Shown piece by piece: positions 9,348 through 31,730 of a DNA stretch of 64,000 nucleotides. The first letter of the stretch is position 1; every line of letters begins with the position of its first letter. Position numbers and translations under genes: made by a program. The notes under the pieces are model-generated. The model was given only the letters and a program-made list of their open reading frames with translations. It searched no databases and was not told the origin of the DNA. This DNA is from Candidatus Moraniibacteriota bacterium. Its GTDB lineage: Bacteria; Patescibacteriota; Minisyncoccia; Moranbacterales; DUUL01. The stretch lies in assembly GCA_027008775.1 (NCBI GenBank), contig JALVDV010000005.1, forward strand, positions 3,300-67,299. The letters run 5' to 3'.

Positions 9348-12300
9348 CTAGTTATTTATCTCCATATTTCCCTCCAAATATTTTCCGTCTTTCAAGAATT
9401 TGACATCCAGCGCCAGAGCTTTCAATTCATTGACCAAGACATGGAAAGAGGCGGGAATACTCGGGGTTTGAATCGGTTCGCCCTTAATGATTGATTCGTA
9501 AGCCTTGGAGCGTCCCAAAACATCATCGGATTTGATGGTGAGCATTTCTTGCAAGGTGTAAGCGGCTCCGTGTCCTTCCAGAGCCCAAACCTCCATTTCC
9601 CCGAAACGCTGTCCGCCGAATTGAGCTTTACCACCCAAGGGTTGCTGAGTGATGAGAGAGTAAGGACCGATGGAACGAGTGTGAATTTTGTCTTCCACCA
9701 AGTGGTTTAGTTTCATTATGTACATATAACCAACCATGGTTTTTTCGGAGAAATGTTCACCGGTGCGACCATCGGTTAACTGAATCTTGCCATCTTCCGG
9801 CAGACCGGCTTTGCGAAGTTCTTCTTTTATCTGTTCGGAAGTTACTCCGTCCAAGGCCGGCGAAGCGGCTTTGTAACCGAGTTTGGCGGCGGCCCAACCG
9901 AGATGGGTTTCCAAAATCTGACCAAGATTCATACGAGAAGGGACACCCAAAGGTGTTAAAACAACATCAACGGGAGTGCCGTCGGGTAAGTAAGGCATAT
10001 CTTCCACAGCGGCAATTTTGGAGATAACACCTTTGTTTCCGTGACGACCAGCCAACTTGTCACCAACGGAAATTTTTCTTAGACGCGCCACAGAAACTTG
10101 AATTTGTTTAATAACTCCGGCCGGCAGTTTGTCCCCGTTTTCTCGGGAGAAAATTTTGATATCAACCACTTTTCCTCTCTTGCCGTGAGGCAAGTAAAGA
10201 GAAGTGTCTTTAACATCCTTTGATTTGTCGCCGAAAATAGCGCGTAACAATCTTTCTTCGGCGGTTAAGTCACCTTCACCTTTGAGGGTAATTTTTCCCA
10301 CCAAGATATCGCCGGAATTTACTTCGGCGCCAATTCTGATAATTCCCTCTTCATCCAAATTTTTCAGACGGTCATCGCCGATGTTGGGAATATCTCTGGT
10401 AACCGTTTCCGGTCCCAATTTGGTTTCTTGAACGTCAACAGAAAATTCGTCAATGTGAATGGAACTGTAAGAATCTCTTTCCACCACTTTTTCGGAAATA
10501 ATAATGGCGTCTTCATAATTGTAACCGCTCCAAGGCATAAAAGCCACCAACATATTTTGTCCCAAAGCCAATTCACCATGATCGGTGGAGGCTCCGTCAG
10601 CCAACAAATCTTTCTTTTTAACTTTCTGTCCCAGAGTTACGCGCGGAACTTGGTTAAGACTGGTAAAAGCGTTTGATTTGGCAAAAGTTTGCAAATTGTA
10701 AATTCTTTTACGACTTTTTCCTTTGCCGTCTCTTTCTTTGATAGTGATGTGATTGGCATCAACCTCAACCACCTCGCCGGCTTCTTTGGCCAGAACAACT
10801 TGTCCGGAATCGGCGGCCGCCTTGTCCTCTAAGCCGGTGCCAACCAAAGGCGCTTGCGGGCGAACACAAGAGACGGCCTGTCGTTGCATATTGGAACCCA
10901 TTAAAGCGCGGTTGGAGTCGTCGTGCTCTAAGAAGGGGATCAAAGCGGTAGCTACGGAAATACACTGCTTGGGAGAAACGTCAATATAATCCAAAAGCTT
11001 TGATTCAATAATGGACGGTTCGGTTTTTACTCGAGCCTCCACTACGTCTTGCACTATGTTATCGTGCTCATCAAGTTCAATGCCGGCGTGGGCAATATTT
11101 TTCTCACCTTCCACAACGGCATTAAGATATTCAATAGTGGAAGTAACAAACGGTTTGACTTTGATGGTGTCTTTAGCCGACTTTTTCAACTTGGCGATAT
11201 TTTTTTCATCAATTTTTTCACCTTTTTTCAAGAGAACCTTCTTATTTTTGTCTTTAACATTTTCTGCCAAAATTCTGCCCAAAGCGTTTTTGTCATCTTT
11301 GCCGATAGAATGTCCGATGAGACGATAAGGGGTTTCAATAAAGCCGTATTCATTTATTTTGGCATAACAAGCCAAATGTCCAACCAAACCGATATTTGGT
11401 CCTTCCGGAGTTTGGACCGGACAAATTCGGCCATAGTGAGAGGTATGTACGTCACGAACCTCAAAGCCGGCTCTTTCTCTGGTTAAACCGCCGGGACCCA
11501 TAGCGCTCAGACGTCTTTTGTGTTCCAACTCGGCCAGAGGATTGACCTGATCCATAAATTGGGACAATTGAGAAGATGAGAAAAATTCTTTAACAGCGGC
11601 CACCACCGGTCGGGAATTAATAAGTTGAGCGTGAGCGACGGTGTTGATGTCGCAAGAACTCATCTTATCTTTAATGTTGCGAGCCATACGCATCAAGCCG
11701 ACACGAATACGAGATTGAATCAATTCCCCCACTCCGCGCAAACGACGACTGCCCAGGTGGTCAATGTCATCCGGTTCGGCGTTGGGGTCATTGTTAAGAC
11801 GAATGATTTCTTGAACGATTTTAACCAATTCTTCCTTACCCAAAAGACGATTCTTTTTGTCTTTTTCGTCTTTATCCATGCCCAGGCGGAAATTCAATCG
11901 GTAACGACCGACTTTGCCAAAATCATAACGATCGTAGTCAAAGAAGACACTGTCAATCATTTGCTTGGCGTTTTCCACAGTGGCCAAATCACCCGGTCTA
12001 AATCTCTTGTAAATTTCTTTGTAAGCCTCCATTTCATTTTTGACCGGATCGCGCAACAAAGTTTCGGTGATATATTTGGTTTCACCGGTATCCACTTCGG
12101 CAAAAGCTTCTTTGATTTCTTTGTCTGTCTTTAAGCCGAAAACTCGCAAAAGAGAGGTGACCGGAATTTTTCGCTTGCGATCTATTCTTACCCAAATCAC
12201 TCCGCTGAGATCCGTTTCCATTTCCAACCAAGCGCCTCGGTTGGGAATAATTTTGGCGCCGAAAGTTCGCCGACCCTTGATGTATTCGGCGGTAAAGAAT

Positions 12301-12764
12301 ACACCGGGGCTCCTGATAAGTTGGGAAACGATGACTCTTTCCACCCCGTTAATAATGAAAGTTCCGCGTTCGGTAATTAAAGGGAGGTCGGTTAGGAAAA
12401 CTTCCTGCTCCCTGACTTCACCGGTTTTTTTAATGAGTAATTTGGCATTGATACGCAAAGGAGCTTCGTAGGAAATATTTTTCTCTTTGGCGGTTTTTTC
12501 GTCATATTTCGGTTCATCCAAGTAATAGTCGCCGAAAGACAATTCCAGCTCTTTGCCGGTGAAATCTTGGATGGGGAATATCTCGTCAATGGCTTCACGC
12601 AAACCTTCTTGCAAGAATAAATCGTAAGAACTGGTTTGGGCCTCAATTAAATCGGGGAGGGAAACCATTGATTGCCTCTTGAAGAATTTTCTTTTGGACA
12701 AACTGGAATGACTGCTGAAGGAGGAACGAACAGCGATTTTTTTCTTTTTGGCGACTTTGCTCAT
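9348..12764 (-). CDS. rpoB: DNA-directed RNA polymerase subunit beta
   Basis: 1138 aa; conserved rpoB blocks (GPGGLTRERAGFEVRDVH, C-terminal ...ELKALALDVKF). Confidence 0.97.
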   Translation of the reverse strand: MSKVAKKKKIAVRSSFSSHSSLSKRKFFKRQSMVSLPDLIEAQTSSYDLFLQEGLREAIDEIFPIQDFTGKELELSFGDYYLDEPKYDEKTAKEKNISYEAPLRINAKLLIKKTGEVREQEVFLTDLPLITERGTFIINGVERVIVSQLIRSPGVFFTAEYIKGRRTFGAKIIPNRGAWLEMETDLSGVIWVRIDRKRKIPVTSLLRVFGLKTDKEIKEAFAEVDTGETKYITETLLRDPVKNEMEAYKEIYKRFRPGDLATVENAKQMIDSVFFDYDRYDFGKVGRYRLNFRLGMDKDEKDKKNRLLGKEELVKIVQEIIRLNNDPNAEPDDIDHLGSRRLRGVGELIQSRIRVGLMRMARNIKDKMSSCDINTVAHAQLINSRPVVAAVKEFFSSSQLSQFMDQVNPLAELEHKRRLSAMGPGGLTRERAGFEVRDVHTSHYGRICPVQTPEGPNIGLVGHLACYAKINEYGFIETPYRLIGHSIGKDDKNALGRILAENVKDKNKKVLLKKGEKIDEKNIAKLKKSAKDTIKVKPFVTSTIEYLNAVVEGEKNIAHAGIELDEHDNIVQDVVEARVKTEPSIIESKLLDYIDVSPKQCISVATALIPFLEHDDSNRALMGSNMQRQAVSCVRPQAPLVGTGLEDKAAADSGQVVLAKEAGEVVEVDANHITIKERDGKGKSRKRIYNLQTFAKSNAFTSLNQVPRVTLGQKVKKKDLLADGASTDHGELALGQNMLVAFMPWSGYNYEDAIIISEKVVERDSYSSIHIDEFSVDVQETKLGPETVTRDIPNIGDDRLKNLDEEGIIRIGAEVNSGDILVGKITLKGEGDLTAEERLLRAIFGDKSKDVKDTSLYLPHGKRGKVVDIKIFSRENGDKLPAGVIKQIQVSVARLRKISVGDKLAGRHGNKGVISKIAAVEDMPYLPDGTPVDVVLTPLGVPSRMNLGQILETHLGWAAAKLGYKAASPALDGVTSEQIKEELRKAGLPEDGKIQLTDGRTGEHFSEKTMVGYMYIMKLNHLVEDKIHTRSIGPYSLITQQPLGGKAQFGGQRFGEMEVWALEGHGAAYTLQEMLTIKSDDVLGRSKAYESIIKGEPIQTPSIPASFHVLVNELKALALDVKFLKDGKYLEGNMEINN

Positions 12765-13365
12765 GGTGGATTGGGTTAGATATTAAAAATATTTAAAATT
12801 TGCGTCTTGCTTGGGTAAGGTGTCAAAATTGGCGAAAATGGAAAAATGGGGACGACACTTTAAAACCGATTGATATTGGTAAATGCGCAAGGGAACGATT
12901 AAAAAATTGAGCAAACAAAAAACAATCAGCTTGACTGATTTGTTGTTTGTTGAATTGTTTAGAAAACGTTTCCCCCGAACATAAAAGAAGGACCAATACT
13001 ATTTCGGCTTTCTGAAACAGTATCAAATTATTTTTTACGGCTCCCGTCTGACCGAGAGGCAAGGAAATAAATTGCAAAAGCAAATTTATTCCCTCCTTAT
13101 CAAAAATACTGGGTATTTAAAAAAGATGAAACCATTTGTTACTCCCCCACATCAAAGGGGAACCTAAACTTGGCATTAACCCTATTGTATCCGTTTTAAA
13201 AAATTTGTCAAGACAACAAAGGGGCGTCCTGCCAACGCCAATCAAAATGCTTCTTATTTTGCTTTTTTGATTTTAAACATTTCGCGTGACTTTGTCAAAT
13301 TTGAATTCGCCTTTTGCAAGCGGTTGTAATTGATAGTTTGCTTTTCTGAGTTTTTGCTTGATTTT

Positions 13366-13465
13366 GAAAATAGGTTGGTTAATTTTTGTTGCTGAGTTTT
13401 GAGATGGTGGGTTGCTTGTACTATTTTTATTTTTGGATTTACTTTTGGATTTTTAGATGCAATGA
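13366..13465. repeat. Copy A of a ~90-bp T-rich direct repeat (aaataggttggttaatttttgtt...gagatggtgg...)
   Basis: About 85% identical to 17107-17195, same orientation; lies in the long region upstream of rpoB. Confidence 0.6.
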
Positions 13466-13671
13466 GTGAAAATTCGGTGATTCCATTTGAATTGAAACCG
13501 CAAAATGTTTTTATTTTCCGAGCTCAATGAATGGTGGGAGCAGTTGCAAAACTATTACAACTGCTCCATATTGTTTATACGTATCCGTGACTAATATGGG
13601 CCCACATTGTGGTAATATGCGTCCTGAGCCTTACCTAAAAGTGAGCCCTTCATTCTAACTTCGTCTTCTCT

Positions 13672-13833
13672 TTATTTTAGAAAAAATAGGACAACTAAGG
13701 TTGTCCAATACCAATCATGAGTTTTGCGCCAGACCATTAATCCGGCTCCCACGACTATGGCAATTTGTATCAACAGATGAATAGTGTTTCTGCCAGGCAA
13801 ATTATAAAAGAAAAAATTTTTTATTTTTTTCAT
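13672..13833 (-). CDS. Small hydrophobic ORF (53 codons, MKKIKNFFFYNLPGRNTIHLLIQIAIVVGAGLMVW...)
   Basis: ATG with ggagg RBS 6 nt upstream; one TM segment; below ORF-track cutoff. Confidence 0.3.
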   Translation of the reverse strand: MKKIKNFFFYNLPGRNTIHLLIQIAIVVGAGLMVWRKTHDWYWTTLVVLFFLK

Positions 13834-14176
13834 TTTTCCTCCTTTGCCCCTTTTTCAGGGGCTTTTTTGATTTAATTTTCCCACTCTTCCGAGCGGTTTT
13901 TGAGGTGGCAATTTTTTGAAACTGCTATCCCAAAAACCACTCGGAAAAGGTTGAGTTGGGGAGATTGGATTTTTAAAGAACTATTTTTTTCCGTGTCGGT
14001 CTGTGTAATGTCCGTGTTTTTCCGCGACTGCGGAGTAGTAAAAGAATACTTCTCTCAGAAATCTTGTTGATTATCAACAAGATTTCAGTTGAGAGGAGCA
14101 AGTTATTGGTTTATAACTTGCTCCCGAAACTTGTTCCCCTGGTCCACGCCCCGGGGGAAATTTTAGCGAGCGGGAA

Positions 14177-18354: not shown

Positions 18355-18520
18355 AGTTTTAAGTTTAAAAAATTTAATAGCCGATATTTTTAATTACTGG
18401 CGCTAATGAGTCATAAAAAGTTTTAGCGCCACCCTGCCCTTGTGATAACTGAAAGCTGTTGGTCTAAACCAATTATATTATATTTTTCTTTTTTGAAAAA
18501 GATACATTCCCCCTGGATTG

Positions 18521-20825
18521 ATTTATAGAAGTAGAAATTTGATAGGTCTATTTGAGGTGGGGATTTCGGACAGGAAGTTATAAATCTACAAAAGTAGAAA
18601 TTTGATAGGTCTATTTGAGAAAAATGACCTTACCTACCACTATGGAAATCTACAAAAGTAGAAATTTGATAGGTCTATTTGAGGATAAGGGGAATAGACC
18701 ACGGAGAAAATCTACAAAAGTAGAAATTTGATAGGTCTATTTGAGCTGCGTTGTATTGCAAATCATCGCCGTATCTACAAAAGTAGAAATTTGATAGGTC
18801 TATTTGAGCTGTTATTATGGACAAGAAATTAAGACAATCTACAAAAGTAGAAATTTGATAGGTCTATTTGAGTTTGCCAATGTCATCAATTATCCTAGAA
18901 TCTACAAAAGTAGAAATTTGATAGGTCTATTTGAGAAAACACCCCTTAATTCACCTAAATTATCTACAAAAGTAGAAATTTGATAGGTCTATTTGAGGCT
19001 GGCAGGGAAGAAGGTTTAAGACTGCATCTACAAAAGTAGAAATTTGATAGGTCTATTTGAGTACCACTTTATCACCTTTTTTTATGTCATCTACAAAAGT
19101 AGAAATTTGATAGGTCTATTTGAGTACCTCGTCTGGTTCAAGATTCTTATCATCTACAAAAGTAGAAATTTGATAGGTCTATTTGAGCAAACGCTTTGCC
19201 AGATTCTTTTTCCGATCTACAAAAGTAGAAATTTGATAGGTCTATTTGAGAGGAGATTGCCTAAAGGTAGCTACTACATCTACAAAAGTAGAAATTTGAT
19301 AGGTCTATTTGAGAAAGGGAAGGAATTTGTTGAGTTTTTCAATCTACAAAAGTAGAAATTTGATAGGTCTATTTGAGACGGTGGCCGATGAGTATTACCA
19401 CCGAATCTACAAAAGTAGAAATTTGATAGGTCTATTTGAGGATATAATCCCATGCGATTGGGTCTTGATCTACAAAAGTAGAAATTTGATAGGTCTATTT
19501 GAGTAGGAAATGACACTGTCCCGGTTATTATCTACAAAAGTAGAAATTTGATAGGTCTATTTGAGCATCCTCATAAAAGCGAAAATAAAAGTATCTACAA
19601 AAGTAGAAATTTGATAGGTCTATTTGAGTAACAAAAAAATCAACCCTGCTATAAATCTACAAAAGTAGAAATTTGATAGGTCTATTTGAGCCTGATTTCC
19701 TCTTTATCAAAGCAACAATCTACAAAAGTAGAAATTTGATAGGTCTATTTGAGGGTCTCCGTCAGCAATGACTGGTGAGAATCTACAAAAGTAGAAATTT
19801 GATAGGTCTATTTGAGCAATAGCCGATGAGTATTACCACCACGATCTACAAAAGTAGAAATTTGATAGGTCTATTTGAGAATATCCCTATATTATAGCTA
19901 TATTATAATCTACAAAAGTAGAAATTTGATAGGTCTATTTGAGAAGATTAGAAGTAAGATAATCGCCAGTATCTACAAAAGTAGAAATTTGATAGGTCTA
20001 TTTGAGCTGTTACATGGACGGAGCAAGGTAAGAATCTACAAAAGTAGAAATTTGATAGGTCTATTTGAGAGACCGTGAGCGGTGCGGGATGAAGTAATCT
20101 ACAAAAGTAGAAATTTGATAGGTCTATTTGAGTTCGTGAATTATTGGACGGAGCCAAACAATCTACAAAAGTAGAAATTTGATAGGTCTATTTGAGTTGG
20201 CGAAGGAAGCTTGATTGACTTCGTATCTACAAAAGTAGAAATTTGATAGGTCTATTTGAGTCCAAGGTGTAAATGTTGCAAATTATCATCTACAAAAGTA
20301 GAAATTTGATAGGTCTATTTGAGATAGGGGGGAGTCTGCAAGGTAGCAGTTATCTACAAAAGTAGAAATTTGATAGGTCTATTTGAGTTCATTAGACGGG
20401 CGGGAACGGAACAAATCTACAAAAGTAGAAATTTGATAGGTCTATTTGAGAAAGAAGGTTCTGGCCAGTCAGTATCATCTACAAAAGTAGAAATTTGATA
20501 GGTCTATTTGAGCTACAAGACAGACAAGGAATGGCAAATCTACAAAAGTAGAAATTTGATAGGTCTATTTGAGACAACGATGCGGCCGGCTGGCTTGTTT
20601 ATCTACAAAAGTAGAAATTTGATAGGTCTATTTGAGGTAATAGTCAAGCACCGCCTTTTTAAATCTACAAAAGTAGAAATTTGATAGGTCTATTTGAGTG
20701 GTGGTGCTAATTATTACACGCTAGAATCTACAAAAGTAGAAATTTGATAGGTCTATTTGAGCTCTGAAACACCAAAGCTTCATAGGATAATCTACAAAAG
20801 TAGAAATTTGATAGGTCTATTTGAG
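18521..20825 (-). CRISPR. Type V-A CRISPR array, 37 repeats of 36 bp and 36 spacers of 25-28 bp
   Basis: Plus-strand unit ATCTACAAAAGTAGAAATTTGATAGGTCTATTTGAG; crRNA strand CTCAAATAGACCTATCAAATTTCTACTTTTGTAGAT carries the Cas12a hairpin UCUACU..GUAGA; period 61-64 bp; leader-distal repeat (18521-18556) is degenerate (3 mismatches in the hairpin). Confidence 0.97.
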
Positions 20826-20990
20826 ACCACAAATCCTTTATTTAAGCCAAAAAGATGCAAGTTGTGGCACATAGCCCCAACGACTTTTTGGCTTAAACAA
20901 GGCAAAACCGAGACATTCAAATTGCGGTTTTGTATTTTTTGAACAGACCCACGGAAATTTCCACTTTTCTTAAGTTGTAAAAGTTCAATC
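20826..20990 (-). promoter_or_regulatory. CRISPR leader with 14-bp perfect inverted repeat (20841-20854 / 20884-20897)
   Basis: AT-rich 165 bp between the cas2 stop and the first repeat; TTTAAGCCAAAAAG ... CTTTTTGGCTTAAA. Confidence 0.55.
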
Positions 20991-21272
20991 TTAACTGATA
21001 TAAATGAGGTCGGACTCTTCATGTTTAGCGTAACCGTATCTTTTAACTTTTTTCTTGCATCCTTCACATAACCGGAAAATATAAATACTATCGGCATTAC
21101 TGAATTTTTTCTGATATCTTAATTCTACCTCAGTTAAAATATTTTGCAAGACTCGTTCACTATCACGTACTTGCCAAACCGAGTATTGAATACGATTGCC
21201 GTATTTTTCCAAAAAACGCGCAAATTTGGTCCTTGTTTTGTCATTTTCAAAATCGTAAGAAACAATCAGCAT
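20991..21272 (-). CDS. cas2: CRISPR-associated endoribonuclease Cas2
   Basis: 93 aa; MLIVSYDFENDKTRTKFARFLEKYG..., Cas2 size and fold pattern; immediately downstream of cas1. Confidence 0.85.
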   Translation of the reverse strand: MLIVSYDFENDKTRTKFARFLEKYGNRIQYSVWQVRDSERVLQNILTEVELRYQKKFSNADSIYIFRLCEGCKKKVKRYGYAKHEESDLIYIS

Positions 21273-21281
21273 AAATTCATT

Positions 21282-22280
21282 TTAACGAATTACGAAATCT
21301 TTTACTTCACCCTCTTCATTTAAGATTAAATAATAGTAGTTGCGAATATAGTGATAGATGTCCATTTTGTATCGTAAAATTTCTTGTAAGAAAATTTTGG
21401 CGTACTTCCCACTATTTTTGTAAGACAAATAGTATTGTCCTTGTTTGTAGCCAAAATCTTTTTTGTCAAATTGTCCCAAGGTATGCATTTTAAACAGAGC
21501 CTTTTCAATTATACAGCGAAATGGTTCCATCATATCACAGGCTAAAGATTTTCTCTGAAAAAATAGTTGATGATAAATTCCTTTATAAGTATCAAAACCG
21601 TAAACTCGCAAAATGGAATCAATAAAATGAAAAAGGAAATTGTAGCCCATATCAAGCAGGATGTTATTTTCATCAACTTTTCCTCTGGGCACCCGCCGGT
21701 ACCAGTTTATTTTGGAAAAATAAGCGCTAAAAAAGTCTTTGGAAATTACGCCTTCTATTCCTCGGAGTGACGCCAAATCGTTAGTATTTTTTATTTTCTG
21801 GCGCATTTCTCTTTTATATTGCAAACGAGATTTCTTGTTAATTTTTTTAATTCCGGCACTACGCAACAAGGCAATTGAATTTCGTAATTTATTGGCAACG
21901 ATTTTTTGGGAAATTTTCAGAGATTGTTCCGGAGACAAAGAATATTGTTTTTGGCGCAAAATATAATTTCCTTCGGCATAAGCGCCCGTGTTAGCATAAG
22001 TCTCAAAATTACGTTTCAAAAAATACAAGGAGGCGCCGACTCGTGAAATTTTTTGCAATAACTTGCTAGTAATGGTTAGGTCTCCAATAATAAAAATTGC
22101 CACCAATTTGTTGACGGGAATTTTATCCTTAGTTTTTCCATCTTCTCTAATTAAAATATTTTCATTACGCAAACTCAATTGGCAATCGGGAATTTTCATT
22201 GCATCTAAGAAAAATATTTGTCTTTCTTTGAAATCGGGCGCCTGGATCATGGTGTTGAAATTAAAAGTTAACTGCCGCAT
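21282..22280 (-). CDS. cas1: CRISPR-associated integrase Cas1 (longest ORF extends to 22355; start at MRQ 22280 or MIQ 22250 more likely)
   Basis: About 330 aa; Cas1-like N-terminal beta-domain (IFFLDAMKIPDCQLSLRNENILIRED), position between cas4 and cas2. Confidence 0.85.
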   Translation of the reverse strand: MRQLTFNFNTMIQAPDFKERQIFFLDAMKIPDCQLSLRNENILIREDGKTKDKIPVNKLVAIFIIGDLTITSKLLQKISRVGASLYFLKRNFETYANTGAYAEGNYILRQKQYSLSPEQSLKISQKIVANKLRNSIALLRSAGIKKINKKSRLQYKREMRQKIKNTNDLASLRGIEGVISKDFFSAYFSKINWYRRVPRGKVDENNILLDMGYNFLFHFIDSILRVYGFDTYKGIYHQLFFQRKSLACDMMEPFRCIIEKALFKMHTLGQFDKKDFGYKQGQYYLSYKNSGKYAKIFLQEILRYKMDIYHYIRNYYYLILNEEGEVKDFVIR

Positions 22281-22881
22281 TTTGACGAGTTGCTCCACTT
22301 TCCTGACGGCATAACTCACGATAAATACAAGCAGAACATTTAGCCTTGCTAACATTTGTGTTTTTATGAAAGCTGAAACTTCTTATTTCAGAAAGTGTTT
22401 GCCAAAATAACTCTTTCTGTTTTTCGCCAATTTCAACCGGATAAACACGATTATCAACCAATGAATAAAGTTTTATTTTTTTAACGGGATATCCCATTTC
22501 CTCCAAGCACAATTTTTGAGCATATAATTGAAATAGATATCCGTCATAGACTTTTTTGATCATTCGCTTTCTTTCAATCAACTCCTGTTTTTTGGTGTCA
22601 TAGATATCAATCTTACCGATTATTCCGTGTCGGGCGGAGAAAACTTCCATTCCTTGTAAAATATTTTTTCGGGAAGAAAATTTTCCTTCTTCTACGCTTT
22701 TATGCGCAATTGTACCGGCAATCTGCGGGCGCGCTTTATATTGCGTTTTATCAAAACTTTCATAAACGCTGTGGAAATACAACGATCGCGGGCAAAAAGT
22801 GAAATCATTGATTTTAGAAATTTGGATATAATCGTAGTACATATTTTTTTGCTTAAATGAAAACAGCGCATTGTAGCACAA
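22261..22881 (-). CDS. cas4: CRISPR-associated exonuclease Cas4
   Basis: 206 aa; N-terminal CPRSLYF and C-terminal Cys cluster CSACIYRELC (RecB-like nuclease with Fe-S cysteines). Confidence 0.8.
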   Translation of the reverse strand: MCYNALFSFKQKNMYYDYIQISKINDFTFCPRSLYFHSVYESFDKTQYKARPQIAGTIAHKSVEEGKFSSRKNILQGMEVFSARHGIIGKIDIYDTKKQELIERKRMIKKVYDGYLFQLYAQKLCLEEMGYPVKKIKLYSLVDNRVYPVEIGEKQKELFWQTLSEIRSFSFHKNTNVSKAKCSACIYRELCRQESGATRQNAAVNF

Positions 22882-22917
22882 ACACGCTGTTTTGTCTAGA
22901 TGTCTATAGCAGGACCA

Positions 22918-25900
22918 TTAGTTATTATTTATTGCTCTTCTTTCAAATTCTGGATAAATAAGATTATAAGCCGCCAAAGTATCTGGAGAATCTATTCCAA
23001 GCTCATTATTTCCTATTTCAAAATCGCAAAACTGACATTTTTGCGTAATTTTTATATATTTTTTAATTCCGTCTTTATTAGTGAAATTAAATTGTAGGCA
23101 TTCAGGGCAAAAAGAGCTACTTTTACCAGTTGGCAAATACTTTATAATTCCCGCTTGTTTTAATTTTTTGATCTCTGCAAAGTAAATTGTTTGCCCCAAT
23201 TTTGGCGGAACTAAATCAAAATCATTTTCAATTTTTCCAAGTCTTCTGTAAAGAGCCCATTCAAATTCCCTGCTTATTGCCCTGCCGTTTTTACTGTGGT
23301 CATCCTTGAATTGAGCCGATAGGTCTTCAAGGTGAATAATCGCTTGGTTGTTAAATTCTTTTTCAATCAAATACGCTATCACACCTGCAATATTGCTTGC
23401 CAAAGCTTCTTTTGTGTTTTTAGGCAAAGTATCTATTGAAATTTGTCCTATTTTTATGAGTGGCAATACTCGTTCATTAAATATCTTCAACTTGTGTTCC
23501 AACACTTTTATCAAAAAAGCAGAAATGAAATTTTCTTTAACATCTTCTGTAATATTCCCATTTAAATACAAATAACTTGCATTTATTCCAAATTTTTTAG
23601 AATTTATTCCATTAAATTTAAGCTGAATTGTTTTTGTTTTATCAACAAACCCAGGTTCAGCCACTATAAGGTTTTCTACCTGCTCAATGTTCAAATCTGC
23701 AAAAGTGATATACATTAGTTGATTTACAACTGATGAAATATCAGCATTCATAATCACTTTATCTTTAATAACTTTTGCATAACTTAAATTTTCTTGGCTT
23801 ATTTCTTTTTCTATTAAGTGCTTGGTGTATTTTGTATAAGGCTTATTCTCATCAAACAAAAGCGATGGGTTTAAAAATATTTTAACTGCACCTTCTTGAT
23901 TTTCATCAAATATCTTTTTGTAATCTATGTAGTAAACCTGTATTTTCTGAAACTTTACTCTACCTTCCTCAATCTTTCCAAAAACAGCAGACACAAGTTC
24001 TGATTCACCCCTATCCAAACCAATTCTTACCGCATTTTTTAAGTTTTCATTAACCACTTTGTTTAATTCAAATATTCTTGTCTCCAAATCTTCATCTTGC
24101 GCAAAAGCTGGCAAAAAGTCTTCTTCTTCTTTTGCGTTTTTTGTAATAGTAAAGACAATGCTTAGTCTATCTTTACCACGTCTTGTTTTGCTTGCTAATT
24201 CTTTTAGCTCTTCACTACTTTGAGTATCAAGTCCTAATTCTAGGAAAATCTTAATCTCTGGGTTTAGTCTAATTGATTCAAAATCTTGTTTTTTAATACT
24301 TTGGAGTAATTCTTTTTCCTCCTTTAAGTATCTTCTGTTTTGCCTGTAATTTCCTTTTACTCCTGAGCTAGTAAGTAAAAACAAATTGCTAAATTGCAAA
24401 TTGTTTGGGTTGTTAAATTTCTTTTGTGCTTCTTGAATTAGTTTTATTAATTTACCACTATTTACATTTGCAACTAAAACAAAATTATAAAGCTCTGTAA
24501 AATCTTTTTTAAAGTCAGCTACATCGCTGTAATCTTTCTCTACAATTGAAATTGATTTTTCAGCAAACGAATGACTCAACTCAATATGACTAAATCGATT
24601 TTTTGAATTACAAATAAGCTTATCTACGACACCTATAAATTTATCAGCTTCTTTTTGTTCTTGTCCTCCAAGTGATGCATATTCTATAAGCTTTTTAAAC
24701 TCTTCTACTACTTTACATTTAAGTGCTGCTGCTTTTGTGCTATTAATAGATCCTGCATCAAGCAAGTATTTAATCAAAAACGCTTTAAATGCAAAAATTG
24801 TATGCCATTTGCCAGCTTTAAAAAATGGGATGAGCTCGCCCAAATTAGCACTTATCAAAGTCTTTGCAGAACGGAGAGTTAAAGATTCTATTTTGTAAAT
24901 TTTCTTGTCTCCAACAGGTTCATTTAATCTCTCAAGAGTGTATAAAAATTCTTTTTTAAATTTTTTGGGAACAAGTAATAAATCAAAGTTTTCATCTTTT
25001 TTATCTAAAACAAGCAATGCCAGATGGCTTAAATTTTTTTTATCCTTTTTATATGTTGCTATTTTTGCTTTTATATTGCCAATATATTTTGCAACTTTGT
25101 TTTTATTTTGAATAAAGTTAGATTTGTTTATTATGTGTGTATAATTTGTACCTGCTGTGTGCGCCGCCTTTTGTTTTTTATTGAGCAAAATTTCAATTAT
25201 TTGAGATTCTTCCAAGTTATCTTCTGACTTGTTGTTTATGATTTTTGCTAGCTCATTAGCTGCATTTTTGCGCTCTGGTTTTATTTGATATTTTTTGTTT
25301 TCTTTTCCAATCAAGTTATCAATTAAAACTTTTAAAATTCTGTTTCGCAAAAATTTAATTAGAAAATCATCTTTAATATTTGAGGGTAAATCTGGCAAGT
25401 ATTTTTTAAAAATATTTATTGCAGAATTTTTTATGTTCTGATCTATTTTTATTTTATTTACTCTTATTTTGTCTTTATTAGATTTTACAAATTCTTCCAA
25501 ATCAGAACCAATAATCTGCTTTGCAAGCTCATCTACCTCTTTTTTCAATCCTTTTATTTCAGTTTTATAACCTTCCGCAATAATTTTGTAAAACTTTTTT
25601 GTCCATTTCCCCGCTTCCTCTACTGTAATAAAGTTATCATTAATTGATTTTCCTAGATAATTCATCGTTGCTTTAAATGCATTTTTATGACCTGCTACAA
25701 ATCTGCTTATGTAATTTAAGTTATCTTTAAGATCCCCCGCCCAAACTTTTTGGGTCAACTTATCTTCTTCTTCTTTAATCTTTTTTTCTCTTTCTTCGAG
25801 AGTAGTTTGTCTTGTAAGAGTATGTTCGTTTAGCGATGCTGTTATGACTTCGTGAAATATGGAGAGTGATTCTTTGAGCTTATCTAAAATTTTTGATAGT

Positions 25901-26487
25901 TTTGCTAAAGTTTTTTGCAACTCTGCAAACTCTTGCGGAACAAGATCATCAGAATGATAATTTTGCTTTTGGATCAAATCAATTGCTTCTTTTAAGGTTG
26001 GCGCTTTTCGTTTTAGCAACTCATGTTCTATATCGAGTGAGCTTTTAAAGATTTCATCTAATATTTTTCTTGTATTTTTAGGAGAAAAATTGGGTGTATT
26101 TTTTTCTGTTAGTTGTTTTTCGAGCGAAATGAGTGATTCGTTTGTTTTTTTAAATAAAGTTGAGAAGAACCCTTTAAGTTTACGACTATTTAAGCGCAAG
26201 CTATCTGCTCGCCCAGAACCTGAAATAAACAAACCAAACTCTGACCCAATGATATGCGGAGAAAGTTTTAGCTTGTAGAGTAAACTTTTGTATTCATCTT
26301 TTTTTACTTCTTCTTTGTCAAATAATTCTATTACTTTCTTTAAAATCTCTATAAGTCTGGAACACAATTCTTCAGGATCAGCTGTATTCTTTTTATAAGT
26401 CTCGATTGCATTTTTTAAATTAGACTCAAAATTTTCATTAACTTTCAAAGCCAGTCTAATAGCAGATGTTTTTTGATACTTGTTCAT
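22918..26487 (-). CDS. cas12a2: Second type V effector, Cas12a2-like (RuvC nuclease with C-terminal zinc ribbon, no Nuc domain)
   Basis: 1189 aa, 19 bp downstream of cas12a. Motifs: N-terminal NKYQKTSAIRLALKV (like the Cas12a WED start), RuvC-I IGLDRGESE (~aa 826), RuvC-II IIHLEDLSAQ (~1054), CPEC...CQFC (~1127-1154), RuvC-III DSPDTLAAYNL (~1166). Confidence 0.7.
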   Translation of the reverse strand: MNKYQKTSAIRLALKVNENFESNLKNAIETYKKNTADPEELCSRLIEILKKVIELFDKEEVKKDEYKSLLYKLKLSPHIIGSEFGLFISGSGRADSLRLNSRKLKGFFSTLFKKTNESLISLEKQLTEKNTPNFSPKNTRKILDEIFKSSLDIEHELLKRKAPTLKEAIDLIQKQNYHSDDLVPQEFAELQKTLAKLSKILDKLKESLSIFHEVITASLNEHTLTRQTTLEEREKKIKEEEDKLTQKVWAGDLKDNLNYISRFVAGHKNAFKATMNYLGKSINDNFITVEEAGKWTKKFYKIIAEGYKTEIKGLKKEVDELAKQIIGSDLEEFVKSNKDKIRVNKIKIDQNIKNSAINIFKKYLPDLPSNIKDDFLIKFLRNRILKVLIDNLIGKENKKYQIKPERKNAANELAKIINNKSEDNLEESQIIEILLNKKQKAAHTAGTNYTHIINKSNFIQNKNKVAKYIGNIKAKIATYKKDKKNLSHLALLVLDKKDENFDLLLVPKKFKKEFLYTLERLNEPVGDKKIYKIESLTLRSAKTLISANLGELIPFFKAGKWHTIFAFKAFLIKYLLDAGSINSTKAAALKCKVVEEFKKLIEYASLGGQEQKEADKFIGVVDKLICNSKNRFSHIELSHSFAEKSISIVEKDYSDVADFKKDFTELYNFVLVANVNSGKLIKLIQEAQKKFNNPNNLQFSNLFLLTSSGVKGNYRQNRRYLKEEKELLQSIKKQDFESIRLNPEIKIFLELGLDTQSSEELKELASKTRRGKDRLSIVFTITKNAKEEEDFLPAFAQDEDLETRIFELNKVVNENLKNAVRIGLDRGESELVSAVFGKIEEGRVKFQKIQVYYIDYKKIFDENQEGAVKIFLNPSLLFDENKPYTKYTKHLIEKEISQENLSYAKVIKDKVIMNADISSVVNQLMYITFADLNIEQVENLIVAEPGFVDKTKTIQLKFNGINSKKFGINASYLYLNGNITEDVKENFISAFLIKVLEHKLKIFNERVLPLIKIGQISIDTLPKNTKEALASNIAGVIAYLIEKEFNNQAIIHLEDLSAQFKDDHSKNGRAISREFEWALYRRLGKIENDFDLVPPKLGQTIYFAEIKKLKQAGIIKYLPTGKSSSFCPECLQFNFTNKDGIKKYIKITQKCQFCDFEIGNNELGIDSPDTLAAYNLIYPEFERRAINNN

Positions 26488-26506
26488 ATTTGCATTTTAG
26501 CATATT

Positions 26507-29500
26507 TTATAAATCTCTTTGTTCACTTCTCTGTTGGTGTGTATACTCATCCCACTCTTTCAAAATGACTTTTGCCTTGTTTTTTTCCGCAAGATTTTGT
26601 TTTGCGAGTATTCCTTTTCTCGCAATATTATATGCACCAACTGCGTCGCCGTTTATAAGATGGTTTGCTTTTCTTGTATCAAAGTGACAACTTGGACATT
26701 GTAAAACATCTCTTTTGTCATCCTCTATGTCAGACCAGTTATCTTCAAAACGCAAGTTAGTCCAGTATTTAAGGGCCATTTTAAGTTTTGAAAAACTTAC
26801 TTCAATATCGGGAATTTCAAAAATATTTTTGTTAATGGCTAAATCATCCAAATCAACATCCAACAAAGCTTCTTTTAAAATTTTTGTTACATTAATCCTT
26901 TCTACATTATGCTGTTTTTTTCTCCAGACTGATCTATCTATATTGCTGTAAATTGTTTCAAAACCATTTGAATCTGTAAGTAAATAATCTGAACGGAATG
27001 GAATTTCATTGCCGCTGGGATTTTTATATTTATATTCCCATTTGTATTTTACAATAAATCTGTCGTTTTCTTTATCGTAGAATAGTTGCAAGTCTTTTTT
27101 ATCCATCATTTTTCTTATGTCTTTGCTTGAACCAAAATTTACACCCCGTCTTCTGTATCCGCACTTCGGACAAGTTTTTGAGGTAAACTTTGCATCCACA
27201 TAAAACACAACCCCTTGTTGTGAGCCCCATTTGTATTGCGGACCAACAGGTGGAACAAGTTGGTATGCATTTCTTATCCCTCCTGAGGTCTTTTCTTTTA
27301 CAAAGTATTCAAGCTTATGCAGAAGCGCATTTTCAAGTTGCTGATAAATATTTTTTTCAATTTTCATCCTTCCGCGCTTGAAGCCTCTGTTTAGCTCTTC
27401 CATTGTAAGAATCGTGTTATTATCAACAATCATTTCAGCAAGTTTGCGTATAACAAAAGATATGTAACCCTTCTTTAAGTCTTTTATCTGCTCTATTGTT
27501 TTCCAAAGCTTTCTGTTTTTCATTCTTTGCTCCTCCCTTGCAGTTAGTTTTTCCTGAAATTTAATGCCTTCTATTTCATTTAAAGAATCTATCTCTTTTA
27601 TATTTCCATCTTTATCAAGCAGGCAATAATAAGCCAAATGCTTTTCTCCTCTGTCTACTCCTATAACAGAGATTTCATCTTTATTATTTTTTATATATTC
27701 TTTAATTTCATCAGCAACTCCCCCCTTTCCTGCCAGCCTGTTTATTTCTATTGGAACATGGAATAATATTTTTGGACTTGCAAATCTCTTTTTTCTGTAA
27801 GGAATTTTATCTGTTTTTGGTTTTTTTAGTTCTGCTTTTGAAACTTTTTCTCTTTCTGACTCTGGCAATGCATCACGGAAAAATACTTCTGCTTGACCGG
27901 ATAGTTTAAATTGCGAATTCTTTTTATTTTCTGCTGAAAACAGCTCCAAAAAGTATAGAGTATGAATGTTTTTTGTTGAATCTGCCTCTTTTTTATCTGA
28001 AAAATCTTTATTGTAAATTTCAAATAACACCAAATTTGTAGGCGGATTCTTTTTGTTTACATTAATAAATTCTATTTCATACATATATTTTTCAAGGGTC
28101 GCAATATAACACATAGCAACTTCATTTCCAGATAAAACACCTTCTTTTTTATCAAGAATGCTTTTTATTTTATTAACAATGCAGTGTAACGGAATTGTGT
28201 TTAATATTTGTTCATCTACCAGATATTTTGACAATTCTTCCATTCTATCAAGTTTAGTACTCTTATCAGAATCATCGTCTTTGTATTCAGTAGAAAACTT
28301 TTTCGCATACAAACTCGACAGTTTTTCATAAGATAATTCAAAATCAACTTTACCTGATTCCAATAAAGCTACTATTTCTTTAAATTTATCTGTTATTGCA
28401 CTAAAATAATTTGTCTTAACAAATTTTTCATTCAAAAATTCTGCAAGCATTTTATTAATCTTTTTTACAGCCGTGTCAGGATTCTCTTTTCGTAATCTTT
28501 CAAGGGTGTAATTTGGTGAAGATTCATTAAAGTACCCTCTCCAACTAGATCCAAACAAGGTTTTATTCTTTAGTAGCTTGTATTCCATTATTTCAAAACC
28601 GTCTAAATTAAAATTGTTTTCTATCCTAAATGGCAATTTAGCATTAATTCCAAGATGATACTTATCATTCTTTTTTAATATAAATGCCTCATACTGATTT
28701 CCCCATCTGTTTTCTGTCTTTTTCAAAGACCATCCATCTGCTAGTTTTTGCCTTTCAAAAGTAAGCTTTATCTTATCCTCAACAACTATCGCTTTCGTAG
28801 CATAATTTCGCGTAGCATTGAATGCTTCGTTGATTTTGTTTTTTCTCGGATTTATTTTTACAATTTCTTGCAAAGCTTTATTTGTGTACAAACTTTCATC
28901 GTCTGCCAATTCAAACAAGTAAAGGAATTTGTTCATATCATTCAAGCGGTAAAACAAAATGCTTAACTTTTCCATGTAGTCATTACGTTTATTTTTGCTT
29001 TCTTTTATCTGTTCACCATGCGCGCTGACATAAGATTTTAAATCTTCAAACAACTCTCTTAAACTTTTATGCTCTGGGCAAGTTTTTTTGTCACAACTTT
29101 CTTCCATTTCTTTTTCTTCAACTGCTGTGTGCCAAGCTCTTCCATTTCTTAATGAATTAAAGTAAAGCTCAAATACTAAAAGTAAGTTATACAAAGCGGC
29201 GTCGCCTGTATCTTCTTGAGAAAATTTTTGTAGTTCTTCTTTTGGTAAGTTCCACGCGCTTTCTTCTTTTACCAATTTATACAAATCTTTTCCTGTAAGA
29301 TTTATTTTTGTCTTTTCTGAGCTGTCTGGATCTTCAACTTTAAACCTAAAAATTTGCACCAACTCACTCAGCGCTATTTCATTCTCATCTAAGAATTTGT
29401 TTACAGAATCAATAACTTGCTTTTCTTCCCCTGTCAATTCATCGTCTTTTTTGTTCTTTAATTCTTCTTTTACTCTTTTTACCGCATCGCGAAATACTTC

Positions 29501-30883
29501 CCAATTTCCAAATGCAAAATTAGATATGAAAGATAGCTGATTTGTATTTAGCCTAAACTCGCCTAATTCAGTCTCCGGGAAATTAAGTTTTTTATTTTCT
29601 TTATCAAGAAGTCCTGTAAATATATCTTTATCCAATAAGTCTACCGCGTATTGCAAAAATGGCTTTCCGTCATAATCATTTGCTACCAATAGGAATTTTT
29701 GCAACTCGTCAATAGTATCAAACTCTAAAAATTCATCTTTACTATCACTGTTTTCATCTTTGTTTTCTTTTCCTAAAATTTGCTTGTAAAGTTTTTTAAA
29801 GAAATCCGGTTTTTTGCCTGACCCTTGCAATTTCTCGTTTAAAAATCTGTTTGCAATCCCAACAGCTTTATTGTATATATCAATTTGAGATTGCGATAAA
29901 ACATTTGCAAAATTTTCAGGTTTAAATATATCTGAGTTTACAGATAATTCTTTGCTTAGCTGTTCATCTAATTTTGCTTTGTAGTCTTTTTCGGCTATTT
30001 GACTTAAATATTTTTGATAGTTTTGTACAAAAAGCTCGGCATTGTCATCAAGAATTCTTGTTGTGATTTGATGTGCGAGGCCTTTTACAATTCCGCTGTT
30101 TTCTGTATCTGAATCATACCCATCGGTATCATATATTTTCGCGCGAATTTGATAGAATTTGCGTAAATAAGTTTTCCATTTATGAAAAAACGAAAATGGA
30201 TTCAATGCGTCTGCTTCTTTACCCCAGCTTATATCTTCTAAATCCCAATCTTGTTCGTCTATATAATGTTTAAAAATCTCAGCTTTTTTTAAATCTTCAA
30301 TAGGAATTTCTCTAAAAGCTTCTACTAATTTATCTGCCCCAGGGTCACCAGCACCTGTTAAAGCATTAAAGTCAATCGTAATATTTCTTTCACCTATCGC
30401 AATTTCTATTGCGTTATTTTTGTTTTTTAAAACCTTGTTTATTGAGCTGGCCAATTCTTTTTTAAGTTTATTTACATTTTTCTCAATATCTGATAAGTCA
30501 TCACTTTCTCTTGATTTTTTGTTTTTATAATCAACTAATTTATTTATAAGTGAGGCAAAATCATCAGAAAGGGATTCTGTATTATCATTTTCACTTAAAA
30601 CCCTGTCTATATACTCTGCATGCAAAGCGGTAACAAGCTTTTTAAACAGAGAAAAAACTCTCGCGCGTTTCTTGTCTCTTTCTAAAAGGTGTACTCCGGT
30701 TTTATTTTTGTTTATAAAATATTTCGCTTTATCTTCCCTTGTAATTTTATCCATACTTGAATACCCTCTCTCGCTTACAATTTCTTCTAGTTCCTCGTCT
30801 ATTAAAACAGGAACGAGTGAGAAGCGAAGCGTTTTTTGTAATGAATACTTGTTCGTAAAATCTTTAAAGCTTTGTGTGGTCAT
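26507..30883 (-). CDS. cas12a: Type V-A effector Cas12a (Cpf1), 1458 aa
   Basis: N-terminal FTNKYSLQKTLRFSLVPV; RuvC-I IGVDRGEKHLAYY; RuvC-II ELNRGFKRGRMKIEKNIYQQLE; RuvC-III GDAVGAYNIARKG. Confidence 0.92.
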   Translation of the reverse strand: MTTQSFKDFTNKYSLQKTLRFSLVPVLIDEELEEIVSERGYSSMDKITREDKAKYFINKNKTGVHLLERDKKRARVFSLFKKLVTALHAEYIDRVLSENDNTESLSDDFASLINKLVDYKNKKSRESDDLSDIEKNVNKLKKELASSINKVLKNKNNAIEIAIGERNITIDFNALTGAGDPGADKLVEAFREIPIEDLKKAEIFKHYIDEQDWDLEDISWGKEADALNPFSFFHKWKTYLRKFYQIRAKIYDTDGYDSDTENSGIVKGLAHQITTRILDDNAELFVQNYQKYLSQIAEKDYKAKLDEQLSKELSVNSDIFKPENFANVLSQSQIDIYNKAVGIANRFLNEKLQGSGKKPDFFKKLYKQILGKENKDENSDSKDEFLEFDTIDELQKFLLVANDYDGKPFLQYAVDLLDKDIFTGLLDKENKKLNFPETELGEFRLNTNQLSFISNFAFGNWEVFRDAVKRVKEELKNKKDDELTGEEKQVIDSVNKFLDENEIALSELVQIFRFKVEDPDSSEKTKINLTGKDLYKLVKEESAWNLPKEELQKFSQEDTGDAALYNLLLVFELYFNSLRNGRAWHTAVEEKEMEESCDKKTCPEHKSLRELFEDLKSYVSAHGEQIKESKNKRNDYMEKLSILFYRLNDMNKFLYLFELADDESLYTNKALQEIVKINPRKNKINEAFNATRNYATKAIVVEDKIKLTFERQKLADGWSLKKTENRWGNQYEAFILKKNDKYHLGINAKLPFRIENNFNLDGFEIMEYKLLKNKTLFGSSWRGYFNESSPNYTLERLRKENPDTAVKKINKMLAEFLNEKFVKTNYFSAITDKFKEIVALLESGKVDFELSYEKLSSLYAKKFSTEYKDDDSDKSTKLDRMEELSKYLVDEQILNTIPLHCIVNKIKSILDKKEGVLSGNEVAMCYIATLEKYMYEIEFINVNKKNPPTNLVLFEIYNKDFSDKKEADSTKNIHTLYFLELFSAENKKNSQFKLSGQAEVFFRDALPESEREKVSKAELKKPKTDKIPYRKKRFASPKILFHVPIEINRLAGKGGVADEIKEYIKNNKDEISVIGVDRGEKHLAYYCLLDKDGNIKEIDSLNEIEGIKFQEKLTAREEQRMKNRKLWKTIEQIKDLKKGYISFVIRKLAEMIVDNNTILTMEELNRGFKRGRMKIEKNIYQQLENALLHKLEYFVKEKTSGGIRNAYQLVPPVGPQYKWGSQQGVVFYVDAKFTSKTCPKCGYRRRGVNFGSSKDIRKMMDKKDLQLFYDKENDRFIVKYKWEYKYKNPSGNEIPFRSDYLLTDSNGFETIYSNIDRSVWRKKQHNVERINVTKILKEALLDVDLDDLAINKNIFEIPDIEVSFSKLKMALKYWTNLRFEDNWSDIEDDKRDVLQCPSCHFDTRKANHLINGDAVGAYNIARKGILAKQNLAEKNKAKVILKEWDEYTHQQRSEQRDL

Positions 30884-30937
30884 AGATAATTTTATTAAAA
30901 CTTATAAATAAACAGAAAAGCTCCCGCAAGGCGAATG

Positions 30938-30993
30938 TGACCACACACAAAAAAAATACCTCACGGAAGCTTCTCAATTTTTGTGTGTGGTCA
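30938..30993. promoter_or_regulatory. 15-bp perfect inverted repeat (TGACCACACACAAAA / TTTTGTGTGTGGTCA) 55 bp upstream of the cas12a start
   Basis: Arms 30938-30952 and 30979-30993, 26-nt spacer containing GAAGCTTC palindrome. Confidence 0.5.
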
Positions 30994-31195
30994 TCATGTC
31001 TTTATAATACAATCTTATCCTTAATAAAGCAAGTTTTGTCTGGCAAACAAAAGCCGTTAAATGTGTTTTATCCCACTAGTTGTTATTCTAAATTTTGTTT
31101 GATTATAAATTTTTTACTTAAAGTTTATCTAACGCTATCCTCATTTTGATAAATATTGCGCAGTCTTTTGATAATTGCCGATAGCTTGGCGGTAG

Positions 31196-31510: not shown

Positions 31511-31658
31511 AATGATTTTTGTGTTTAGTGATAATTAAAATTAACTTTTGCTTAGATGTCAGAGGGAAAGTGAGAAAATGCTCGCAAAAAATATTAAAAA
31601 ATCATCCGGCAAAAAGGACGATTTTTGAAAGACCGGATGATTAGTTTGTTAATCAGTG

Positions 31659-31730
31659 AGCGGGTAACGGGAATCGAACCCGTATCCTCAGCTTGGAAGG
31701 CTGATGTAATAGCCATTATACAATACCCGC
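31659..31730 (-). tRNA. tRNA-Gly (anticodon UCC)
   Basis: Minus-strand cloverleaf: acceptor GCGGGTA/TACCCGC, anticodon loop CTTCCAA, T-arm ACGGG-TTCGATT-CCCGT; CCA not encoded. Confidence 0.85.

Follow-up and report, generated by a model that had tools for sequence, protein, structure and literature searches.

What does a second effector gene contribute to a CRISPR locus that already encodes Cas12a? The question is raised by a stretch of 64,000 nt from Candidatus Moraniibacteriota bacterium (assembly GCA_027008775.1, contig JALVDV010000005.1), the whole of which we call the window. On its minus strand a cas12a gene encoding 1458 amino acids (aa) is followed, after a gap of 19 nt, by an open reading frame (ORF) of 1189 aa and then by cas4, cas1, cas2 and the CRISPR array. 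An earlier reading of the letters alone (the sequence-only reading) had taken the 1189-aa protein for a Cas12a2-like nuclease that uses the same array as Cas12a and, once triggered by RNA, would degrade RNA as well as DNA. Its operon order, coordinates, ORF lengths and 19-nt gap were accurate and it recognised the kind of system correctly. The family and the DNA shredding have to be revised: as judged from its sequence, the protein belongs to the Cas12a3 clade, in which it forms part of a rare and deep sub-branch, and not to Cas12a2, Cas12a4 or Cas12a.

Two-effector CRISPR loci of this kind are known, and the exact protein, the repeat and the Cas12a partner have all been published. The 1189-aa ORF is identical at 1189 of 1189 positions to MG60_8Cas12a3 in the supplementary FASTA file of Dmytrenko et al. 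2026 (Nature, PMC12851939), the Supplementary Data 1 of which labels MG60_8 as Cas12a3. In the table of that paper the protein is sourced to DOI 10.1089/crispr.2020.0043 and stands without contig, organism or cas context. Goltsman et al. 2020 (CRISPR J, PMC7757703) presented it as MG60-8, a 'Cas12l' of type V-L, with a repeat identical to the 36-nt repeat of the window. They gave the same repeat for MG56-1, which is the Cas12a of the window (the published sequence begins at M44 of the window ORF), and their Supplementary Fig. 3 carries the title 'co-occurring Type V-A and V-L effectors'. Tandem arrangements of cas12a and a divergent partner on one array have been in print since 2019, the year in which Chen et al. 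(Front Microbiol) presented the Cas12a/Cas12a' pairs of Roizmanbacteria. Dmytrenko et al. and Li et al. describe this arrangement as well, and Dmytrenko 2023 already contains the idea of dual effectors. The novelty implied by the sequence-only reading is thus not upheld. What the window supplies is the native context that MG60_8 lacks in the Nature 2026 table: a chromosomal location with its flanks, cas12a, a full adaptation module and an array of 36 spacers.

Clade placement of the second effector

As a reference set we used 16 labelled sequences from the Nature 2026 supplement, the lengths of which all agreed with its table, and extended it by the full-length matches of an exhaustive HMMER search. 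This search yielded only 32 relatives of the 1189-aa protein among 1.84 billion representatives, nearly all of which align only from about residue 650 on. The sub-branch, as used in the following, comprises five proteins: the ORF of the window, P0002, P0007, P0008 and P0011. Scans of the ORF against Pfam and NCBIfam (including TIGR04330) gave no match, and single-sequence phmmer searches against the PDB (including 8d49) and against the reference set returned nothing, such that profiles were needed. Two short PADLOC 'Cas12a' profiles matched the ORF end to end (E=1e-42 to 1e-47). To the neighbouring Cas12a it is 29% identical, over 126 aa only.

In BLASTP the best non-self matches were all Cas12a3, led by MG60_9 (3e-23), Rb2 (1e-21), Sm2 (4e-20) and ca1 (6e-19). 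The Cas12a3 matches extended over 450–600 aa at 24–27% identity (E=1e-23 to 1e-11). Cas12a2 references were matched over approximately 130–200 aa around RuvC-II and the zinc ribbon with E-values from 1e-4 to about 1e-6, which is no better than the match to the neighbouring Cas12a (9e-7), and matches to Cas12a4 references were not significant. When searched against the PDB, a profile of the sub-branch retrieved only the cryo-EM entries of Cas12a3 (21we at 5.6e-43 and 9hlx at 2.6e-26) and no chain of SuCas12a2 or Cas12a at E<=1. A broader profile of 19 sequences ranked Cas12a3 (6e-194 and 4e-173) ahead of SuCas12a2 (2e-51) and of Cas12a (7e-14 or weaker). Comparing the sub-branch by hhalign gave scores of 473 for Cas12a3, 142 for Cas12a2 and 55 for Cas12a4.

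A neighbour-joining tree was calculated from 924 well-occupied columns with 200 bootstraps. The sub-branch obtained 100% support and Cas12a3 including the sub-branch 99.5%. Within the clade the sub-branch is sister to all other Cas12a3, which group at 85.5%. The 1189-aa protein was placed with Cas12a2 in 0.5% of the replicates and with Cas12a4 in 0%. BLASTP, PDB profiles, hhalign and the tree all give Cas12a3, in disagreement with the Cas12a2 identity assigned before.

An AlphaFold model built from the 19-sequence alignment reached a mean predicted local distance difference test score (pLDDT) of 69, with 80–90 in the NUC lobe; from a 2-sequence alignment the pLDDT was 32. By Foldseek E-value, Cas12a3 (5.1e-24) and Cas12a2 (4.6e-24) structures matched the model equally. 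The template modelling (TM) scores were 0.50/0.48 for Cas12a3, 0.37–0.39 for Cas12a2 and 0.27 for Cas12a (E near 1e-13). Since the alignment behind the model is rich in Cas12a3, the TM ranking leans towards that clade, and we take it as supporting evidence only.

Among the published entries of the FASTA file, MG26_14, MG26_15 and MG60_3 carry W at positions where G is conserved in the family (WLDKW in place of GLDKG, for example). It suggests that UGA was read as tryptophan in the translation of genes in which it stands for glycine (genetic code 25); such entries would distort alignments built on them.

Functional anatomy and proposed mode of action

The split-RuvC and zinc-ribbon motifs quoted in the sequence-only reading are all present. 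The RuvC triad D825/E1054/D1169 aligns with D848/E1063/D1213 of SuCas12a2 (Su) and D712/E1032/D1137 of Ba1Cas12a3 (Ba1) throughout all 35 sequences. C1127, C1130, C1151 and C1154 of the zinc ribbon are invariant, with 20 residues between the Cys pairs, so that D/E/D and Cys4 are kept in 19 to 35 homologues. One residue needs correction: the RuvC-III motif had been identified properly, yet its catalytic residue is D1169, the second D of DSPD, and not D1166. Both the Nuc domain and the target-strand-loading domain are absent, the ribbon being compact, in line with the claim that no Nuc domain exists. Likewise, the resemblance of the N-terminus to the WED start of Cas12a is borne out by the alignment, in which the N-terminal strand matches the WED start of Cas12a and Cas12a3. 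Two outcomes that had been named as contrary, a conventional Cas12a with Nuc and a protein without triad or zinc ligands, were not found: TIGR04330 and Pfam gave no match, and triad and Cys4 are intact. Split RuvC, zinc ribbon and Cas12a-type repeat bear out the claim of a second type V effector of the Cas12a2/Cas12a3/Cas12a4 supergroup, in tandem with cas12a on one array.

Further conserved positions concern RNA binding and the family core. The arginine of the CRISPR RNA (crRNA) site, R785 in Su, corresponds to the invariant R769. The serine that contacts the protospacer-flanking sequence (PFS), S469 in Ba1, corresponds to S535 in a conserved ESLT motif. The core motifs ASxN, ESLT, RLNPE, AKVIxxKVIxNxD and EWALYRK..VPP agree with Cas12a3. 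The RuvC spacing had been cited in support of Cas12a2. The 229 aa between RuvC I and II fit both clades (225–248 in Cas12a3 without the tRNA-loading domain, tRLD; 200–236 in Cas12a2), and we rejected this distance as a clade discriminator since the ranges overlap. The 115 aa between RuvC II and III lie inside the range of Cas12a3 (105–152) and outside that of Cas12a2 (150–173).

In SuCas12a2 the aromatic clamps Y465/Y1080 and Y1069/F1092 enable collateral cleavage of double-stranded DNA (dsDNA), and clamp residues are needed for immunity in vivo. The loop of 25–30 aa after RuvC-II that holds Su Y1069, Y1080 and F1092 is absent from the 1189-aa protein, as it is from all Cas12a3 and all Cas12a4. 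Y400 falls into the column of Su Y465, where the alignment of the recognition (REC) lobe is unreliable. With the clamp loop missing, the proposed shredding of dsDNA would not be expected, and the degradation of single-stranded DNA (ssDNA) proposed along with it finds no support.

A second substrate-related element is the tRLD, which in Ba1 spans residues 855–960 and contacts tRNA through K881, K885, R902, Y922 and N924. Both this insertion and its contact residues are absent from the 1189-aa protein. The tRLD is largely a Ba-type insertion, and most Cas12a3, including the 1189-aa protein, have a much shorter, unrelated segment at its position. We rejected the Ba1 tRLD residues as a test for the Cas12a3 clade, as most of its members are without them. 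According to Li et al. (NAR 2026), the tRLD occurs in only ~35% of Cas12a3 and marks a tRNA-specific subgroup, not the whole clade. The same study reports that tRLD-less RoiCas12a3 cleaves target single-stranded RNA (ssRNA) efficiently, is a strong collateral RNase and degrades tRNA in a different pattern. The lack of a tRLD would therefore favour a broader, RoiCas12a3-like RNA cleavage over the removal of tRNA tails.

From these features we propose, with a probability of about two thirds, that MG60-8 is a Cas12a3 without tRLD which operates on one array with MG56-1 and provides an RNA-triggered, RNA-only back-up layer. The array would be transcribed from the leader next to cas2. Its repeats would offer one 3' handle (AAUUUCUACUUUUGUAGAU pseudoknot) to Cas12a and the second effector alike, and each of the two would produce mature crRNAs through its WED site. 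While Cas12a would cut invader dsDNA flanked by a protospacer-adjacent motif (PAM), the second effector would pair the same guide with a complementary transcript, of which the purine-rich 3' flank would be the complement of the T-rich PAM. Pairing with the transcript would open the second effector and expose the RuvC site D825/E1054/D1169. RuvC would then cleave RNA only (the target as well as bystander RNA, tRNAs among it) and leave dsDNA intact. The expected outcome would be a shutdown of translation and growth arrest, serving as back-up when the clearance of DNA fails.

That MG60-8 would share crRNAs, be activated by RNA and have collateral activity on RNA only, we infer from characterised relatives: Ba1, Sm3, ca23Cas12a3, BaCas12a3 and above all the tRLD-less RoiCas12a3. 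Sharing of crRNAs by tandem partners has been demonstrated for Cas12a and Cas12a2 (Dmytrenko 2023). Cas12a3 and Cas12a4 cleave RNA only, and activation by RNA holds for all Cas12a2, Cas12a3 and Cas12a4 that have been characterised. The Cas12a3 label matters in practice, as it leads one to expect RNA-only cutting and no DNA shredding.

Several points weigh against this proposal. The tree is distance-based and has one outgroup sequence. On conserved columns the 1189-aa protein is only ~21% identical to other Cas12a3, and outside the sub-branch hardly any sequence similarity can be detected for its first 640 residues. Residues 56–187 are modelled by AlphaFold with a pLDDT <50. The second crRNA-processing residue, Su K784, is replaced by T768. 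The segment of ~110 aa at the tRLD position is specific to the sub-branch and could confer another substrate preference. Lastly, 5 of the 36 spacers were searched in viral contigs for protospacers, which bear on target type and strand bias, and no match was obtained.

Alternatives to an RNA-only back-up effector differ in what would be cut. A Cas12a2 orthologue, triggered by RNA, would degrade ssRNA, ssDNA and dsDNA and kill by DNA shredding. The common supergroup, the zinc ribbon, the lack of Nuc and the tandem with cas12a are what such a protein would have, the Foldseek E-values are equal and the 229 aa between RuvC I and II lie within its range. We nevertheless consider it very unlikely: SuCas12a2 is missed by the sub-branch profile, the hhalign score is 142 versus 473, 0.5% of the bootstrap replicates place the protein there, the clamp loop required for dsDNase activity and for function in vivo is absent, and the defining paper (Dmytrenko 2026) names the protein Cas12a3. 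Hardly credible is a second DNA-targeting nuclease that shares the crRNA of Cas12a, the original suggestion of Goltsman et al. 2020 for type V-L, since all characterised members of the three families are activated by RNA, neither Nuc nor a target-strand-loading domain is found and the PFS-type motif of the PAM-interacting (PI) domain is conserved.

The two remaining alternatives stay within Cas12a3. A strict tRNA-tail nuclease of the Ba1 type would, upon activation by RNA, selectively remove the tRNA 3' CCA and spare the target and other RNAs. In its favour are the membership of the Cas12a3 clade, the cleavage of tRNA tails by Ba1 and Sm3Cas12a3, and the Sm2/Sm3-type proteins, in which the Ba1 insertion is likewise replaced by a short segment. 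However, the Ba1 contacts K881, K885, Y922 and N924 sit in insertions that are absent here, deletion of the tRLD abolishes tRNA cleavage in the Ba proteins, tRLD-less RoiCas12a3 cuts target and bystander RNA broadly, and the REC2 loop 251–257 is not conserved. We regard a strict tRNA-tail nuclease as unlikely. The judgement ranges from unlikely to quite unlikely for a distinct lineage that is Cas12a3 in name, with a collateral substrate or activation rule of its own and an obligate Cas12a partner. Such a lineage would agree with the fully supported sub-branch as sister to all other Cas12a3, with the rarity of relatives (32 in 1.84 billion, almost none aligning to the N-terminal half), with an insertion segment specific to the sub-branch in a protein lacking both tRLD and aromatic clamp, and with the location of all five members directly downstream of cas12a; the literature moreover terms these clades 'hyper-evolvable'. 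Against it stands that no positive sign of a different activity was seen and that the core motifs are as in Cas12a3. The RNA-only back-up effector thus remains our preferred reading. As a deep tRLD-less Cas12a3 branch that is always paired with cas12a, MG60-8 is a candidate for studying the evolution of substrate choice and also how DNA-cutting and RNA-triggered effectors cooperate on one set of guides.

The locus, its array and its surroundings

The features of the locus are compiled in Table 1. The gene of the 1189-aa protein was compared with that of its 75%-identical homologue P0002, which gave a dN/dS of 0.15. From this value we conclude that we are dealing with a genuine gene, on which purifying selection acts over the full length. 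With full-length homologues and invariant catalytic residues in addition, both a duplicated Cas12a fragment and a pseudogene were rejected as explanations for the ORF. An own ribosome-binding site, as had been claimed, was not detected: the 19-nt gap (AATATGCTAAAATGCAAAT) contains no Shine-Dalgarno (SD) motif. As an SD core precedes only 2 of the 28 larger genes of the window, the leaders of which are A/T-rich, its absence is no argument against translation of the ORF, and in this organism translation seems for the most part to start without SD pairing. Between the second effector gene and cas4 lies a gap of 75 nt. Promoter and terminator scans gave results at chance level.

Table 1. Features of the two-effector locus in window coordinates.
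Feature	Coordinates	Strand	Remarks
cas12a	26507..30883	-	1458 aa; TIGR04330, PF18516, PADLOC Cas12a; = MG56-1
Intergenic gap cas12a/second effector	26488..26506	-	19 nt, A/T-rich, without SD motif
Cas12a3-clade effector, 1189 aa	22918..26487	-	= MG60-8 ('Cas12l', type V-L) = MG60_8Cas12a3
RuvC-I D825 codon (IGLDRGE)	24013..24015	-	invariant in 35 aligned sequences
RuvC-II E1054 codon (IIHLEDL)	23326..23328	-	invariant in 35 aligned sequences
Zinc ribbon, C1127-x2-C1130 ... C1151-x2-C1154	23026..23109	-	4 Cys invariant in the 19-sequence family alignment
RuvC-III D1169 codon (SPDTLAAYN)	22981..22983	-	invariant in 35 aligned sequences
cas4, 193 aa from ATG start	22261..22842	-	TIGR04328 type V Cas4, 203 bits
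cas1, 322 aa	21282..22250	-	TIGR04329 type V Cas1, 304 bits
cas2, 93 aa	20991..21272	-	PF09827 and TIGR01573
Putative leader, cas2 to first repeat	20826..20990	-	inferred from position; degenerate terminal repeat at the opposite array end
CRISPR array, 37 repeats of CTCAAATAGACCTATCAAATTTCTACTTTTGTAGAT, 36 spacers	18521..20825	-	36 repeats perfect, last with 3 mismatches; spacers 25-28 nt

The 36-nt repeat terminates in the canonical Cas12a handle AATTTCTACTTTTGTAGAT and folds into a hairpin of 5 bp with a 4-nt loop, UCUAC-UUUU-GUAGA. Since the degenerate repeat is found at the end far from cas2, the leader should adjoin cas2 and the array should be read in the direction of the cas genes. Self-targets of the array spacers were not found within the window. 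Spacer 16 (19817-19843) and spacer 23 (19378-19404) have a common 19-nt core, GGTGGTAATACTCATCGGC, with differing flanks, from which we conclude that one target region, in identical or variant form, was acquired twice. No match turned up in the viral collection.

The partner protein is a Cas12a by TIGR04330 (393 bits, cut-off 300), by PF18516 RuvC_1 (E=1.9e-64) and by the PADLOC Cas12a profile (E=3.6e-206). Its RuvC triad is D1077/E1162/D1413. It keeps four zinc-ligand cysteines (CPKC 1238-1241 and CPSC 1396-1399), and a Nuc insertion of ~155 aa lies between the two Cys pairs. A match to the TNB domain PF07282 was seen as well. With 1458 aa the protein is unusually long; its relatives in two of the loci described below measure 1483 aa (L008) and 1556 aa (L006).

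A cas12a homologue is located directly upstream of the Cas12a3-type gene in all nine related loci that were retrieved; any array found there is the only one of its locus and has a Cas12a-type repeat. The sub-branch is represented by the contig of P0002 (L001), with a Cas12a C-terminus 74% identical to that of the window, by the loci of P0007 (L008) and P0008 (L009; GCA_054024795.1, JBPMOD010000005.1) and by that of P0011 (L010/L003) in a metagenome-assembled genome (MAG) of Pseudobdellovibrionaceae. Other loci come from MAGs of Phycisphaerae (L004) and Spirochaetia (L007) and from two DPANN archaeal MAGs. In Candidatus ainarchaeum (L005) the stop codon of cas12a and the start codon of the Cas12a3-type gene overlap; in the Woesearchaeota chromosome OZ242164.1 (L006) proteins of 1556 aa and then 1185 aa are encoded with a 16-nt gap. 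A metagenome scan returned one distant locus only.

Some of these loci show peculiarities of their own. The repeat of the array at the P0008 locus (6926-8464) is identical to the window repeat at 36/36 positions, and its adaptation module is 69% (Cas1), 74% (Cas2) and 57% (Cas4) identical to that of the window, while identity is far lower in the effectors (37% for the Cas12a C-terminus, 27% for the Cas12a3-type protein). The effector pair thus seems to have had a history different from that of the adaptation module and the repeat. Additional genes separate the Cas12a3-type gene from cas4 in some loci: a NTase_sub_bind and NTP_transf_2 (HEPN/MNT-like) pair (11450-12137) at the P0007 locus and, at the Phycisphaerae locus, a gene for a 670-aa TPR protein (11854-13866), which may be the TPR-DUF3800 accessory that Li et al. 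2026 mention.

The window is a segment of a bacterial chromosome, as seen from rpoB, rpoC and typA. The G+C content of the CRISPR-cas island (18500-31000) is 0.29-0.35, that of the flanks ~0.40-0.45, and a tRNA-Gly(tcc) gene at 31658-31730 forms the upstream border of the island. Horizontal acquisition of the island at a tRNA site would be compatible with these features. Two giant ORFs are located on the minus strand at 46150-52944 and 57322-63621. YadA-head repeats are found in one of them, of 2264 aa; the other, of 2099 aa, has a Peptidase_S74 intramolecular-chaperone domain of the type known from tail-fibre/endosialidase-like proteins, and proteins with Ig-like and dockerin domains are encoded between them, so the region is probably a gene cluster for the cell surface or adhesion. 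Low G+C, scarce SD motifs and the two giant surface-protein genes are compatible with a host of the candidate phyla radiation (CPR) type and are no proof of it.

Comparison with known systems

The closest system is MG60_8Cas12a3/MG60-8 itself, with an identical protein, an identical 36-nt repeat and the same partner MG56-1, without any sequence difference. RoiCas12a3/Rb2Cas12a3 of Roizmanbacteria resemble MG60-8 in being Cas12a3 without tRLD, with a zinc ribbon and a Cas12a-type repeat, and their RuvC I-to-II spacing of 227 aa is close to the 229 aa of MG60-8. The two differ in that identity is ~25% and limited to the C-terminal 600 aa, the N-terminal lobe not being alignable by sequence, and MG60-8 belongs to a different, deeper sub-branch.

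Ba1Cas12a3/BaCas12a3 (9hlx, 21we), which are tRNA 3'-CCA nucleases, are the best PDB matches of MG60-8 by profile and fold and share with it the RuvC triad, the zinc ribbon and the serine that contacts the PFS. They carry the tRLD of ~100 aa (R902, Y922, N924) that MG60-8 lacks, and have 320 aa instead of 229 aa between RuvC I and II. With SuCas12a2 (8d49; Dmytrenko 2023, Bravo 2023), MG60-8 has in common the supergroup, the general architecture, a zinc ribbon replacing Nuc, a Cas12a repeat and the tandem with cas12a; the clade is a different one and the clamp loop is found in SuCas12a2 only. The Cas12a/Cas12a' pairs (Chen 2019) likewise combine two Cas12a-like genes per CRISPR locus in uncultivated bacteria. 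In their group 1 proteins the glutamate of RuvC-II was reported to be substituted, whereas the triad of MG60-8 is intact.

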